Origin: Octopus vulgaris
Lineage: Eukaryota
Direction of reading: 5' to 3'
Assembly (NCBI GenBank): GCA_951406725.2
Contig: OX597836.1
Location: 23,250,001-23,314,000 of the forward strand
DNA length: 64,000 bases
The position numbers and the translations under genes are program-made. The notes below the pieces were generated by a model that had not been told where the DNA came from, searched no databases, and saw only the letters and a list, made by a program, of their open reading frames with translations. Shown here piece by piece: positions 4,975 through 54,217 of the stretch. Positions within the stretch are counted from its first letter, which is position 1. Each line of letters starts with the position of its first letter.

Positions 4975-5547
4975 TTTCAAATTATGACACAAGGCCAGCA
5001 AATTCGGGAGAGGAGTATAAGTCGATTACATCGATCCCCAAGGCTCAACTGGTACTTATTTTATCGACGCCGAAAGGAGAAGAGCAAAGTCGACATCGGC
5101 AGAATTTGAACTCAGAACGTAAGGACGAAATACCTATTTCTTTACTACCCACAAGGAGCTAAACACAGAGTGGACAAACAAGGACAGACGAACGGACTAA
5201 GTCGATTATATCGACCCCAGTGCGTAACTGGTACTTATTTAATCGACCCCGAAAGGATGAAAGGCAAAGCCGACCTCGGCGGAATTTGAACTCAGAACGT
5301 AAGGACGAAATACCTATTTCTTTACTACACACAAGGAGCTAAACACAGAGAGGACAAACAAGGACAGACAAACGGACTAAGTCGATTATATCGACCCCAG
5401 TGCGTAACTGGTACTTATTTAATCAACCCCGAAAGGATGAAAGGCAAAGTCGACCTCGGCGGAATTTGAACTCGGAACGTAGCTGCAGACGAAATACGGC
5501 TAAGCATTTCGCCCGGTGTGCTAACGTTTCTGCCAGCTCGCCGACCT
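4975..5547 (-). mobile_element. SINE family A trimer (one head, three bodies); the 3'-most unit has the alternative tail
   Basis: three copies of gaaaggcaaagtcgacctcggcggaatttgaactc-like body; 22-bp TSD at 4953-4974 / 5548-5569 (2 mismatches). Confidence 0.9.
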
Positions 5548-5614
5548 ACTATATGGAAGGATATATTGGCTTAGCGGCATTCGTCGATCTTTACGTTCTG
5601 AGTTCAAATTCTAT

Positions 5615-6067
5615 TGATCCGACCAGTATTACGGATGTGAAAACTGGAAAGCGACAAAAATAGAAGACTAAACACTGGGCAACTTCCATCGTCACATGTT
5701 TAAGGAGACTACTCGACGTCAAGTGGCTGCAAAGAGTCCGAAACGACACAGTTGAAACAACAACGGGTATTAACAGGATCAGTGAGGACATAAGACGCAG
5801 CTGCTGGAACTACTGGATCGGACACTGGAACTCAGACAAGATCACGAAAGCGATTGTATGGTGGCACTAAAGTGACAACCTGAGAGGAGGAAGTAAGCAG
5901 CAGGACGCCCTAAAACCAGATGGCGAAGAGCAATTGAGAAGGAAAAGAGATGAGAAGCGTAGAGATGCTGGAATGAGAGCAGAACAGTGGCAGAAAAAAA
6001 CAGAGCTGGTTGGAGAGATCGTGTTGTGGTCTTATGTGCTCCGAGGCACGGAGAGAACTAACTAACT
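5615..6067 (+). pseudogene. RTE-clade LINE 3' fragment (decayed RT C-terminus) with (ACTA)n tail
   Basis: translates with stops and frameshifts to GCENW..CLRRLLDVKWLQRVRND..WIGH..GRPKTRWRR..RAGWRDRV..LCAPRHGEN*. Confidence 0.8.
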
Positions 6068-6374
6068 ATTGTTGTTGCTATTATTGTCAGTGTTGCTTTT
6101 ATTGTTGTCGATAAAATTATATATTCGTGCCGTGCCTTCACACCTCTCCTCCTCTGTCTCATATATAAACACACACCACACCGGTCCACTTAGCAAAGAG
6201 GCTGTATTATCCTCATGATAAAATATATTACTGTAAAACTACAAAAGGAATGAAGATTTTTCGAAAGCTGCACCCTTTATTGCTTATTGTAGCTAAGTGG
6301 ACTGAGCTAAAAATGAAATATGTTGGCCTATCTCATGTCAAACCGGATATAAGAAAAACATTGTTTCTTGTTTA

Positions 6375-6550
6375 GACATTAAACTCAAGAGGACAGGCGA
6401 TTCGTAGATATCATCGACTGAGATTTTATCGACTCTGGAGGGATGAGAGGCAAAGCTGAATTTGGGCAGGATTTGAAGTCAGAACTTAAAGAGAAAGAAC
6501 AAATACGATAAGGCATTTGTCCGGCACTCTAACGACTCTGTCACTCCACC
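6375..6550 (-). mobile_element. SINE family A, old diverged copy
   Basis: atcgactctggagggatgagaggcaaagctgaatttgggcaggatttgaagtcagaac. Confidence 0.65.
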
Positions 6551-6669
6551 GGATTTAAACGAGGTAAGGAAATATATAAATAAAAATTTACTGTTTCATT
6601 ACGGACCCAGTTTACTGAATTTTAATCCGAACTGAGCCCCTGTAGGATATCTACTTAAGAACAGCAGCC

Positions 6670-7072
6670 TATTTCTTTACTACCCACAAAGGGCTAAACA
6701 CAGAGGACAGACAAACAGATTAAGTCGATTATATCGACCTCAGTGCGTAACTGGTACTTAATTTATCGACCCCGAAAGGATGAAAGGTAAAGTCGACCTC
6801 GGCGGCATTTGAACTCAGAGTGTAACAGCAGACGAAATGCCTATTTCTTTACTACCCACAAGGGGCTAAACACAGAGGGGACAAACAAGGGCAGACAAAG
6901 GGATTAAGTCGATTATATCGACCCCAGTGCGTAACTGGTACTTTATTTATCGACCCCGAAAGGATGAAAGGTAAAGTCGACCTCGGCGGCATTTGAACTC
7001 AGAACGTAACGACAGACGAAATACTGCTAAGCATTTCGCCCGGCGCGCTAACGTTTCTGCCAACTCGCCGCC
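6670..7072 (-). mobile_element. SINE family A dimer
   Basis: two bodies and one head; 15-bp TSD ttaagaacagca(g/a)cc at 6655-6669 / 7073-7087. Confidence 0.9.
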
Positions 7073-50877: not shown

Positions 50878-50913
50878 CTTTCTGTTGAAGAGCGTATGCT
50901 CGAAACGTTAAAG
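50878..50913 (+). ncRNA. minimal type-I hammerhead motif (core variant CUGUUGA)
   Basis: CTTT-CTGTTGA-A-GAGC gtat GCTC-GAAA-CG-TT-AAAG inside the element at 50850-51000. Confidence 0.55.
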
Positions 50914-51039
50914 ACTTTTCTCACTTCCTAGCGTTAAAGTAATACATCTGTTTGTTGTTTACACACCGGTCTTCGTCTTTTGTTCTTTTGTAAATTCTTT
51001 ATATATAAATTATATATATATATATATATATATATAAAT

Positions 51040-51112
51040 AGTTGAAATTTGCAGAAAAACAAAAGACGAAGACAGGTGTATGAGCAACAAACAGGTGTAT
51101 TAGTTTGACGCT
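51040..51112 (-). mobile_element. tail fragment of the hammerhead-element family, tail-to-tail with 50850-51000
   Basis: aaaagacgaagacaggtgta...acaaacaggtgtatta is the reverse complement of ~50930-51000. Confidence 0.75.
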
Positions 51113-52054
51113 CTACTCAAACTGTGCTCTCTACGCATTCTGATCGAATCCTGCGTGTTTTAATAAGTGGTACTGAACCGGGAACCATGTGATTGGGAAC
51201 CAAACTGCCTACCATACTGCTACGCTTGATGTACACACACACACAGACACATACATATATAAAGATAAATATGTTTATGTATATATATGTATGTTTGTAT
51301 ATATGTATATATATATATATATATATATATATATATATATATATATATATATATATGCAAAGATAAGACCGAGGGATCCGAGTAAGAAGTTTGTAAACTC
51401 CAAGCAGTCCGTGGCAGGTGTAGAGAACAAAAACTGGACAGAGTACGACAAGGGGACAATAGCAATTTATTGGTATCGAAAGTTTCACACTTTCTCTCAT
51501 ACTGAAGTTATGAGGAAATTCGATGAGCTGATAATATCTATGTAACTCACGAATGCGAAAAAAAAAAACCTAAATCGAGGGAATGGAAAGGTAAAATGCA
51601 AGCTACATATGTTTCTTAGCTAACTGATTCTCTGATGTAACAGTTAGTCAAAGAGGGGTTCTCAACTTAGCTAATCATCACGCTGAAATTACCTTAATTA
51701 AATGAAGGTTACATTGATGCTTGGAATTTCCAAGTTAACTCACCGCAGATGTGAGTTATACGTACTCACACACACACACACACACACACACACACACACA
51801 CACACACACACACACACACACACACACACACACACACACACACACACACGATATAAATATTTTGTAAATATAATGAAAATACTTTTTGCATAGACGACAC
51901 CCTTCAGCTACGAACCCAATAATAATGAAAGGAATTAATGAAGCAGTAATATAATGAATATAATGAAATGTAATGACTGTTAAACCTCATGGAATGTAGA
52001 AAATAAAATCACGACACATGTATCAAACTAAATACATACATATATATATGAACT

Positions 52055-52444
52055 GGATGGAAGCCCTCCGTCGGTTACGACGATGAGGGTTCCGGTTGAT
52101 CCGAATCAATGGAACAGCCTGCTCGTGAAATTAACGTGTAAGTGGCTGAGCACTCCACAGACACGTGCACCCTTAACGTAGTTCTCGGGGATATTCAGCG
52201 TGACACAGAGAGTGACAAGGCCGGCCCCTTGAAATACAGGTACAACAGAAACAGGAAGTAAGAGTGAGAGAAAGCTGTGGTGAAAGAGTACAGCAGGGAT
52301 CACCACCATCCCCTACCGGAGCTTTGTGGAGCTTTTAGGTGTTTTCGCTCAATAAACACTCACAACGTCCGGTCTGGGAATCGAAACGGCGATCCTATGA
52401 CCGCGAGTCTGCTGCCCTAACCACTGGGCCATTGCGCCTCCACT
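52055..52444 (-). mobile_element. SINE family D, full length, with long TSD
   Basis: tRNA head GTGGAGGCGCAATGGCCCAGTGGTTAGGGCAGC...TTCGATTCCC; ~28-30-bp TSD aaactaaat(a/g)catacatatata(ta)tgaact at ~52025-52054 / ~52445-52472. Confidence 0.92.
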
Positions 52445-53799
52445 AAACTAAATGCATACATATATATGAACTATACTTTCTACAGACACAATCATTTGTT
52501 TTGAGCAGCGACAAAAAACAAACTACGTAGCGCGATGCGGAAAGCGAAAATAGAAAACCGGGAAGAAAATATCAACAGTGTCTGTTATCCTGCTTTTGCT
52601 TGTAAAATATTTTTCAGAGTCTAATAACCGAGGCTTAACATTTAAAATAATTTAAAATCAACTTGAAGATATGAGAATCATAGTATTATGAGAAATACCT
52701 TGCAAATATACGCACGCCCACATAATACACACGCACGCGCGCGCACACACACACACACACACACACACACACACACACACACACACACACTCATAAACGT
52801 ATAGGCGGATGTATAGAAATTATGAATGTGTGTGTGTGTGTATTTATAGAATTTTTATCGCTAAGTCAGGTGTGTGTGTGAGTGGTGGGGGTCAGTATCC
52901 ATGATTCTTTTCAAAGCTTCCAAGGAGTGATGGGACGAAGATATCAGCAACAGGAGGTGTAAATATGCACCCATGGATCAGGTGGGGGTGGGGTGGGGGT
53001 GAAACTGGGCCGTGGATCATGTCTATCCCACTTAGTAGGCCAGTGGGGGTATTTGAACTTAAAACGCAAACATCCGGAATAAATACCACAAGTTATCCTC
53101 TCCAAAGTTGCAAAGTTCCAAAGGTTCCTGTATTTATTTCCCCACCCCCTCAACACATACCTCGCCCGGCTGCTACTTTATTTATCAAACCTCGAAGGCT
53201 GAAGACAATGTTGACCTTCGGTATAATTTGAACCCAGAACATAATAAACCCGGAATAAATACAGCAAGGCAGTTTGCCTTTTACCCCAAAGACTCAGTTT
53301 AATCATTGCTTCACTCTACTCTTAAGTATTTGCTTTCAGCTTTATTTAATGAAACTCTACTCTGGAGACATTTCATTAGAAAAATAAACCCATATCAAAT
53401 GATGAACCTTGTTGTTGTTTTTGTTGTGCAAGATGACAGGTTTTACATATTTTCATAGTTTTGTGTAAATTCATTGAATTCCAGTCATTTAAAATAATTG
53501 TTTGGGCTTTATTCGGGGAGATTTTGTATACCAGGCGGGATGAACACACGTTTTGAAAAACCTGAAGAAATATACTAATGACTATTGCATTAAATGCGAA
53601 CCTATTCATTTTCATCAAGTCCAGTCCGATATGATGCGGGTAGAACTCAGCAGCTGAGCGCTTCTATAACGGCTTATCCCATATTAATTAAACTTAATCT
53701 CGGAACTGCAAGCTAAGTTAAGGGGCGGGGTAAAGTAAGTACGGATTTAAAATCTTATAATAATGAGTTATGCCCGTTTACGCCCTGACTTCAAATTCA

Positions 53800-54217
53800 T
53801 ATTTCTTTACTACCCACAAGGGGATACACACAGAGAGGACAAACAAGGACAGTCAAACGGATCAAGTCGATTATATCGACCCCAGTGCGTAACTGGTACT
53901 TATTTAATCGACCCCGAAAGGATGAAAGGCAAAGTCGACCTCGGCGGAATTTGAACTCAGAACGTAACGGTAGACGAAATACCTATTTCTTTACTACCCA
54001 CAAGGGGCTAAACACAGAGAGTACAAACAAGGACAGACAAACGGATCAAGTCGATTATATCGACCCCAGTGCGTAACTGGTACTTATTTAATCGACTCCG
54101 AAAGGATGAAAGGCAAAGTCGACCTCGGCGGAATTTGAACTCAGAACGTAACGGCAGACGAAATACGGCTACGCATTTCGTCCGGCGTGCTAACGTTTCT
54201 GCCAGCTCGCCGCCTTT
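53800..54217 (-). mobile_element. SINE family A dimer inserted into an older, oppositely oriented A remnant
   Basis: 15-bp TSD cctg(a/t)cttcaaattc at 53784-53798 / 54218-54232. Confidence 0.9.

Follow-up and report, generated by a model that had tools for sequence, protein, structure and literature searches.

Self-insertion at a GGTAT-type target in its own head as the probable source of head-less tandem arrays of an octopus SINE

Described systems closest to the octopus arrays

The closest precedent for the arrays described here is the crocodilian SINEU, mobilised by Tx1-Mar (Kojima 2015, PMC4494074). It resembles the octopus SINE (family A) in its fixed target inside another repeat, Tx1-type partner (a candidate one in octopus), ~16-bp TSD and tandems formed by sequential insertion; it differs in being aimed at a DNA transposon, Mariner-N4_AMi, and in having a TSD between its tandem copies (PMC4494074). 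In the octopus family the target is the element's own head, the products are mostly seamless and head-less, and one head variant escapes. Both favour a particular sequence at a fixed site within a repeat, whereas full-length tandems sandwiching a TSD are a minority in octopus, with two nested copies (L047 and L088) against 37 head-less arrays in an unbiased sample.

The 5' junctions of R2 fall into "anneal" and "join" classes (Zhang et al. 2024, PMC11371274): the junction is seamless where the cDNA shares homology with the target, and a minority of events are end-on joins that carry a duplication. However, R2 is autonomous, uses an RLE nuclease and owes the homology to rDNA or to design (PMC11371274), whereas in the octopus SINE the homology would arise from the element striking its own family.

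Tandem SINE arrays of Scapharca broughtonii, ascribed to unequal recombination, have the structure TSD-(SINE)n-TSD, with one complete head, head-truncated later units and, in some, other families (Martelossi et al. 2024, PMC11481361). They make up 3% of SINEs there, in contrast to 41 multimers among 91 A-bearing elements in a 1.46-Mb sample of the octopus genome; their inner units are incomplete at the tail as well, and the passages of that paper on the arrays mention neither a target motif nor self-insertion. The squamate sSat, SINE-derived satellites likewise put down to unequal recombination (Vassetzky et al. 2023, PMC10702118), consist of tandem SINE parts that sometimes grow by dimeric units, like one pentamer described below; they form longer arrays, and no retrotransposition-defined breakpoint is described in the sections of that paper on their growth. 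No description of a SINE targeting its own head was found in the literature searched. Self-insertion would give SINE tandem repeats, usually blamed on a vague unequal recombination, a precise source defined by retrotransposition.

Tandem arrays in the window and in the genome

The window, a stretch of 64,000 nucleotides from Octopus vulgaris, contains four arrays at the positions given in the initial annotation, all on the minus strand (Table 1). Its description of four loci with a single head, ~180-bp bodies and one TSD was borne out in every case, the unit length being about 180-184 bp; units are numbered here by reference to 53985-54215 of array 4. Six of the eight junctions (at 5127, 5307, 6834, 22519, 22876, and 53976) carry the motif proposed there; in the remaining two (22337 and 22694) the 3' end is followed by unit position 60. 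In the pentamer the position-49 junctions (22519, 22876) alternate with the position-60 ones, giving a higher-order period of 357 bp. Two details had to be corrected. The SINE 3' end is indeed GAAATA, but the GG of the junction is target sequence (position 49 onward); and the locus described as a trimer of family A (4975-5547) is an array, but its 3'-most unit (about 4975-5134) belongs to the sister family b3, whose tail differs from that of family A. Unit 2 of this array has a 4-bp deletion close to its 5' end in common with unit 3, and tail variants in common with unit 1; the b3 unit may represent the original target. Contigs of four runs (organisms A-D) over 4400-7600 reach the edges of both arrays from unique flanks and break inside; none of them spans an array, and an empty-site allele was not observed.

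Table 1. Positions of the arrays and related elements within the window
Feature	Position	Strand	Remarks
Array 1, unit 1: head and family-A body	5315..5547	-	94% BLAST identity to 53985-54215
Array 1, unit 2: A unit without head	5135..5314	-	
Array 1, unit 3: sister family b3	4975..5134	-	
Array 1, TSD	3' copy 4954-4974; 5' copy 5549-5569	-	19/21 identical
Array 2: A-A dimer	6670..7073	-	junction 6834-6847
Array 2, TSD	6654-6669 / 7072-7087		15/16 identical; 5' copy begins GGT
Array 3: A pentamer	22170..23111	-	
Array 3, TSD	22154-22169 / 23111-23126		16/16 identical
Array 4: A-A dimer	53800..54215	-	junction 53976-53989
Array 4, TSD	53784-53798 / 54218-54232		14/15 identical
Head hairpin (predicted)	54155..54184	-	unit positions 32-61; target 48/49 at 3' edge of loop
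Family-A monomer	10906..11135	-	at non-SINE GAT/GGTAT site
Family-A monomer, TSD	10890-10905 / 11136-11151		16 bp
L1/Tx1-group LINE fragment	12705..13333	+	5'-truncated

The breakpoint is fixed at unlinked loci, as the initial annotation had suspected from these four: 51 of the 61 junctions in the 1.46-Mb sample lie at unit position 49/50. The exact junction sequence has 43,681 matches genome-wide against 2 for the reversed control, far above chance. Another fixed junction lies at position 16 (4,111 copies); a pattern for the junction followed by a b3-type core gave 12 matches and is too strict to serve as a count. Random unequal crossover, which by the earlier argument would not explain a shared breakpoint, is rejected as the origin of the junction.

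Family A, one of the most abundant repeats in this octopod genome, is 232 nt long, with 134,670 exact 3' ends genome-wide, and so falls within the SINEBase definition of a short interspersed element of at least 100 copies, as do its variable-length TSDs (9-24 bp in 47 insertions). The head carries A-box-like and B-box-like motifs, judged by eye against the usual consensus; neither ARAGORN nor Rfam reported a tRNA match to it. The core may resemble the Meta-domain of MetaSINE. Ohshima and Okada reportedly described tRNA-derived octopus SINEs, OR1 and OR2, in 1994; these are presumably the same or related families, and tandem copies may already be mentioned in that work.

Within a dimer the two units are not related to each other: their distance (0.097) falls in the range seen between loci (0.097-0.113), and in A-A dimers the tail type is the same in 10 of 25, with 11.3 expected from shuffling. 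In about half of the arrays the last unit belongs to another, older sister family (last units of the 37 unbiased arrays: A 15, b1 13, b3 3, truncated 6). Where an array ends in b1 (27 arrays), divergence is higher in the last unit than in the first (7.5% vs 4.4%; last unit more diverged in 21, first in 4; p=4.6e-5). No such difference in age is seen where the last unit is A (4.4% vs 4.2%, p=0.57), and the arrays ending in b2 or b3 are too few, at 6 (p=0.22). Arrays of at least three units have a within-array distance of 0.063 and, where they hold at least three A units, 29 rare variants common to a subset of the units and 9 common to all. DNA-level amplification with homogenised units, as in sSat, fits many of these arrays but not the dimers, and the longer arrays likely grow by DNA duplication as well; homologous duplication of any kind preserves the junction exactly.

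The target site in the head and the candidate LINE partner

Outside SINEs, family A inserts at RY/GGTAT-like sites. Among 47 insertions confirmed by TSDs (modal length 16 bp), 17 begin with GG, 14 of them with RY just upstream. GGTA directly follows 17 of 62 terminal 3' ends, against a background of 0.26%, and genome-wide 6,670 of the 134,670 3' ends are followed by GGTA and a non-T base, some of these being mutated junctions. The monomer in Table 1 exemplifies the same motif as that of the head site, here outside any SINE. The SINE head contains a GGTAT-type target at position 48/49, which is hit at a rate tens of times that of the motif elsewhere: 37 of 73 intact head sites are occupied versus 7 of 988 other motif sites, a roughly 70-fold excess, exaggerated by CpG decay in heads that escaped insertion. 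The short motif alone does not account for this excess.

The head variant without the motif (C at position 49) is almost never hit. Although C49 is present in 20,858 of 50,485 exact heads, such heads occur in 403 of the 43,681 junctions; a pattern for a full-length copy nested at position 49 gave 55 matches, as against 2 for its C49 counterpart, neither of them truly nested. The C49 variant makes target immunity directly testable. Of 39 nested-pattern loci inspected, a script classed 27 as nested and visual reading added 4, with TSDs of ~16 bp (the modal length, in 11 of 27) that start at position 49; at five loci (L159, L266, L267, L269, L274) locus-specific variants are present on both sides of the nested copy. 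These TSDs, together with the age of the last units, support insertion into a pre-existing copy, so that of the options listed in the initial annotation it is self-insertion of the family at the junction site that stands.

The target class also follows the tail. Ends with the GGGCAAT tail variant lie at position 49 or GGTA in 6 of 37 cases and at position 16 or AGAA in 10 of 37, compared with 153 and 3, respectively, of 204 ends with the two T tail variants (p=1.5e-11 for position 49/GGTA and p=4.7e-7 for position 16/AGAA).

Judged by alignment, the SINE tail matches the 3' ends of L1/Tx1-group LINEs, as expected of a LINE-derived 3' region under SINEBase. At three of the four loci tested the score exceeds the shuffled maxima (L015, 58 vs 36; L202, 57 vs 33; L097, 49 vs 30), and the tail of the L280 family falls below them (33 vs 39). 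The lineage was found by a stem-loop scan; a search based on RVT_1 revealed no shared tail among the best 30 loci. Its protein contains RVT_1 and zf-RVT, with L1 ORF2p as the best solved match (E about 1e-50, vs 1e-24 for R2). The LINEs recovered belong to related families, with a likeness of about 75-80% across some 50 nt; they sit in TATC, ATT or TC repeats, and their copies end in microsatellites. None of these candidate partners appears linked to GGTAT targeting. The LINE fragment in the window belongs to this lineage, whose 3' ends resemble the tail, and its own 3' end gave no clear match.

Origin of the head-less arrays

We consider it probable that family A inserts into existing copies of itself and of sister SINEs at the GGTAT-type target in their head and that the head-less arrays arise by annealing of the cDNA to the homologous target. 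A protein of an L1/Tx1-group LINE would likely bind the LINE-like 3' end of the SINE and nick RY/GGTAT-like sites. End-on joining then produces a full-length copy flanked on both sides by a ~16-bp TSD starting at position 49, the minority outcome seen in the nested copies. In the main outcome the cDNA, being homologous to the target, would pair with it and resolve seamlessly, leaving one head, an extra unit of ~182 bp and the TSD of the old element; repeated insertion and DNA-level duplication would give trimers to pentamers. The annealing step draws on a gradient of rare variants shared inside dimers, from 4/22 at positions 50-66 to 0/23 at 201-231, a weak one since 46 of 59 dimers share no rare variant. 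It is also favoured by position 20, where T occurs in 5 of 7 GC-head arrays with b1 as last unit vs 4 of 22 GC-head monomers (p=0.016). If so, the arrays document in nature, tens of thousands of times over, the resolution of the 5' end of a non-LTR insertion whose cDNA matches the target, a step for which work elsewhere has relied mostly on R2 assays. Insertion of the SINE into its own family would also act as a harmless sink for new copies and mix sister families into chimeras, which likely confound repeat libraries, copy counts and age estimates.

A possible supplement to self-insertion, which we regard as doubtful, is RNA guidance: RNA from Pol III read-through of an array would run on beyond the 3' end and into the following unit; this extension would pair with the nicked strand and steer priming to homologous heads. 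Such guidance would suit the head excess over the same motif elsewhere, the dependence of target class on tail variant and the lack of any run of four T on the sense strand of the unit, and annealing of a template 3' tail is used by R2 (PMC11371274). However, the upstream RY preference cannot stem from RNA pairing, different LINE partners would equally tie tail variant to target, and b1 last units are not richer than b1 monomers in A-type letters (11/29 vs 8/26 at each of positions 62 and 64); overwriting of the 5' part of the last unit by RNA is likewise unsupported for b1. An extension of the same idea, equally tentative, is a feed-forward one. Read-through transcripts of arrays, which include the sequence they target, would base-pair with nicked heads in any member of the family and thereby start further arrays, until a large fraction of the intact heads was occupied and C49 was selected as an escape; the SINE would then be in an arms race with itself.

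It is improbable that the arrays are formed at the RNA level by reverse transcriptase halting at position 49 of one SINE RNA and moving, within one insertion event, to the 3' end of an A RNA. Template switching by R2 proteins in vitro has been reported (PMC11371274), and such a jump would yield unrelated units and mixed families. The heads also allow it: A-type GC heads, found on 1 of 20 arrays ending in a sister family in a small sample, are present on 8 of 36 in a larger set, and with the depletion so weakened many array heads come from incoming RNA, as is expected under a jump too. However, a jump leaves unexplained the nested copies with TSDs, the motif at non-SINE sites, the older last units and the immunity of C49 heads.

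Still less credible is descent from one multimeric master as an ordinary dimeric subfamily, with copy number changed by homologous events. Such events may account for part of the arrays of at least three units, and whole re-mobilisation of some arrays may occur. As a general origin, the multimeric master copy offered in the initial annotation is already largely refuted: units do not cluster by position, as they do in complex SINE families with a dimeric master, the first-first (0.105) and last-last (0.113) distances being not below the monomer-monomer one (0.106); last units come from four families; and at least three rare variants are common to both first and last units in only 7 of 3,741 array pairs, none convincing.

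The remaining suggestion of that annotation and its main idea, re-copying of one RNA by a jump that base pairing between the 3' end and the internal site would direct, or from a circular or lariat template, is the least plausible of all, for although the junction is self-complementary and some rare variants occupy every unit of an array, that pairing has a predicted probability <0.002, the variants confined to a subset of units are more numerous, dimer units are unrelated and many arrays end in another family. The internal arm is instead predicted to be held in the head hairpin (pair probability about 1; -13.3 vs -3.6 kcal/mol). The self-complementarity of the junction is likely incidental, since the fixed point coincides with the target motif and the position-16 junction is not self-complementary.

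Tandem junctions in the window and genome-wide

The four arrays of the SINE under study, family A, described in the initial annotation were recovered on the minus strand of the window (see table). Every array has a single head and a single TSD, and its units measure about 180-184 bp. The trimer stands as an array but not as one of family A throughout, its last (3'-most) unit belonging to the sister family b3, with head and core as in A and a different tail. The fixed junction was likewise confirmed: in six of eight window junctions the terminal GAAATA is joined to position 49 or variants of it (numbering of window unit 53985-54215), in the other two to position 60. 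The latter type, found in the pentamer only among 61 sampled junctions, is read as a local deletion or a second cut, duplicated afterwards. Junctions of the pentamer alternate with a period of 357 bp, which fits dimer duplication.

The tandem-junction observation is real and very abundant, with 43,681 exact junctions in the genome searched (control pattern, 2) and 134,670 exact family-A 3' ends. An unbiased sample of 1,464,000 bases (120 spaced 10-kb stretches, 20 beside the window and the window, the element being ignored) held 257 family elements, 91 of them containing a unit with an A tail; these comprise 50 monomers, 27 dimers, nine trimers, two tetramers and three pentamers. By alignment, 51 of the 61 junctions fall at positions 50-52, three at 16, two at 60 and five elsewhere; the junction at head position 16, the second fixed one, is matched exactly at 4,111 sites of the genome. 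Array statistics also draw on 40 stretches centred on junctions of one contig (C1) and 8 of 10 exact-junction loci, and these junction-centred additions bias the array set toward exact, younger junctions.

Locations of the SINE arrays and associated features (L numbers, sampled or fetched stretches; C5, a contig of the genome searched)
Feature	Location	Remark
Trimer	window 4975-5547	
Dimer	window 6670-7072	
Pentamer	window 22170-23110	
Dimer	window 53800-54217	
Position-60 junctions	window 22337, 22694	
Position-16 junctions	L032:1708, L083:6386	examples
Family-A monomer	window 10906-11135	GG-starting target site, TSD-based
L1/Tx1-group LINE lineage copies	L015:960-3000(-), L202:6300-6830, L097:3825-4320, L088, L057, L170, L280-L282; window 12705-13333	
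SINE copies abutting others in opposite orientation	window 5570-5611; L039(-) near 5500	in L039(-), inverted head joined to body at position 66
Head-only tandem repeats	L165 (C5:87874785-87875360), L154, L173	period 59-67 bp; some adjoin nested insertions
Unrelated ~280-bp repeat family	window 38250-38531, L080, L085, L098, L214	copies 88-95% alike; frequent neighbour of these SINEs

Insertion into the SINE head

Insertion of the family into itself at a fixed site, one of the initially proposed explanations, is borne out by nested copies and by older last units. Nested TSD-flanked A copies are direct evidence for self-insertion: a pattern in which one head breaks off after position 59 and another begins had 55 genomic matches, of which 39 were read (6 overlapping others and 10 more were left out), and 27 of these 39 loci contain full-length A copies whose flanking TSD begins at position 49 (modal length 16 bp). 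Four further loci are nested by eye, and in several nested copies variants peculiar to the locus occur in the TSD on either side. In 27 arrays ending in the sister family b1, divergence is 7.5% in the last unit versus 4.4% in the first, the last being older in 21 versus 4 (p=4.6e-5), and no such age difference was found where the last unit is A; monomer divergence is 4.6% in A, 9.2% in b1, 11.6% in b2 and 15.1% in b3. Copies of b1 in L093, L029 and L138 run directly into a further SINE, joined near its position 50 or 16-20, and self-insertion may therefore be a trait of the whole SINE group.

Because TSDs fix the SINE 3' terminus as GAAATA, the bases that follow are target DNA; 62 terminal ends continue with GGTA in 17 (one a SINE head; background in the sample, 0.26%), TATA in 14 and AGAA in 6. 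Among 47 TSD-confirmed insertions (modal TSD 16 bp), 17 TSDs begin with GG, 14 of them with RY upstream. The head reads GC/GGTAT at 48/49 and GC/AGAA at 15/16; each of the two fixed junctions therefore corresponds to a target class also hit outside SINEs. The tail variant GGGCAAT is the main user of the position-16 junction and outside SINEs favours AGAA and TATA targets. Each target class is associated with its own tail variant, a linkage that speaks for RNA guidance of targeting, which we nevertheless regard as doubtful. Exact heads number 20,858 with C at position 49 and 29,627 with G, and only 403 of the 43,681 junctions involve C49. The nested pattern with C49 heads matched twice, versus 55 times, and neither match was a nested insertion on reading; target DNA must therefore read GG.

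Intact head sites are occupied in 37 of 73 cases (about half) versus 7 of 988 identical motifs elsewhere, a roughly 70-fold excess that is inflated by CpG decay of unhit heads. It could stem from homology-assisted completion, from the hairpin, from Pol III chromatin, or from a read-through RNA that pairs with the primer. In the folding model the nick position lies at the edge of the head-hairpin loop, and cruciform extrusion of that hairpin might help a nuclease.

Head-less and longer arrays

Self-targeted insertion with homologous resolution is the best explanation of the arrays, and we hold it with good confidence. Head-less arrays outnumber nested full-length copies by 37 to 2 in the unbiased sample. 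With a homologous SINE as target, the cDNA could anneal to it, and several modest signs suggest such annealing or homologous resolution as the source of the head-less form. Rare-variant sharing in 59 dimers is 16/263 overall (random pairs, 1-3%) and drops along the unit from 4/22 at the 5' end to 0/23 at the 3' end; heads look chimeric at position 20, which is T in 5/7 GC-head arrays ending in b1 versus 4/22 GC-head monomers (p=0.016). The GC head, an A-only type, occurs on 8 of 36 arrays whose last unit is non-A. Many array heads thus derive from the incoming copy, which heteroduplex resolution allows and an RNA jump also fits. R2 yields both kinds of product, mostly seamless 'anneal' junctions and besides them 'join' junctions in which the shared sequence is duplicated (PMC11371274).

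Unit distance is 0.063 within arrays of at least three units, 0.097 within dimers and 0.097-0.113 between loci. Twenty arrays with at least three A units have 29 rare variants common to a subset of units and nine common to all, six of these arrays having no shared rare variants. This mixed sharing, together with the closer units of longer arrays, makes it likely that repeated insertion and stepwise DNA duplication both operate. A jump guided by pairing of the 3' end with the internal site, as first suggested, is disfavoured by folding predictions, which put that pairing below 0.002 and place the internal arm within a head hairpin of 12-13 bp. The multimeric master copy is rejected, since units neither cluster by position nor carry a co-inherited chimeric haplotype.

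Related systems and the LINE partner

SINEU/Tx1-Mar, R2 junctions, tandem SINEs of bivalves and squamate sSats, as far as the consulted parts of these sources go, each match one part of the present case. No description of a SINE targeting its own head, or of these octopod arrays, was found in a literature set with few subscription papers that dealt with SINEs of the octopus, SINE satellites, Tx1 and self-insertion, so that family names and novelty are provisional; word search of two 2026 octopus repeat papers gave no such passage.

None of the 30 best RVT_1 loci shares a tail, and neither these loci nor a stem-loop scan yielded the exact partner family for A. The scan pointed to a lineage of LINEs, the families of which have an A-like tail at their end, followed by TATC, ATT or TC repeats; these diverse microsatellite-ending families resemble Kibi/Koshi-type targeting. 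The lineage is likely to belong to the Tx1 clade, because targeting of microsatellites and other repeats is known from Tx1 families (PMC4494074). Alignments of the SINE tail with LINE 3' ends exceeded shuffles in three of four cases. Homologues of the candidate partner carry RVT_1 and zf-RVT, their nearest solved structure is L1 ORF2p, and the one named to species is from Argonauta hians (57%).
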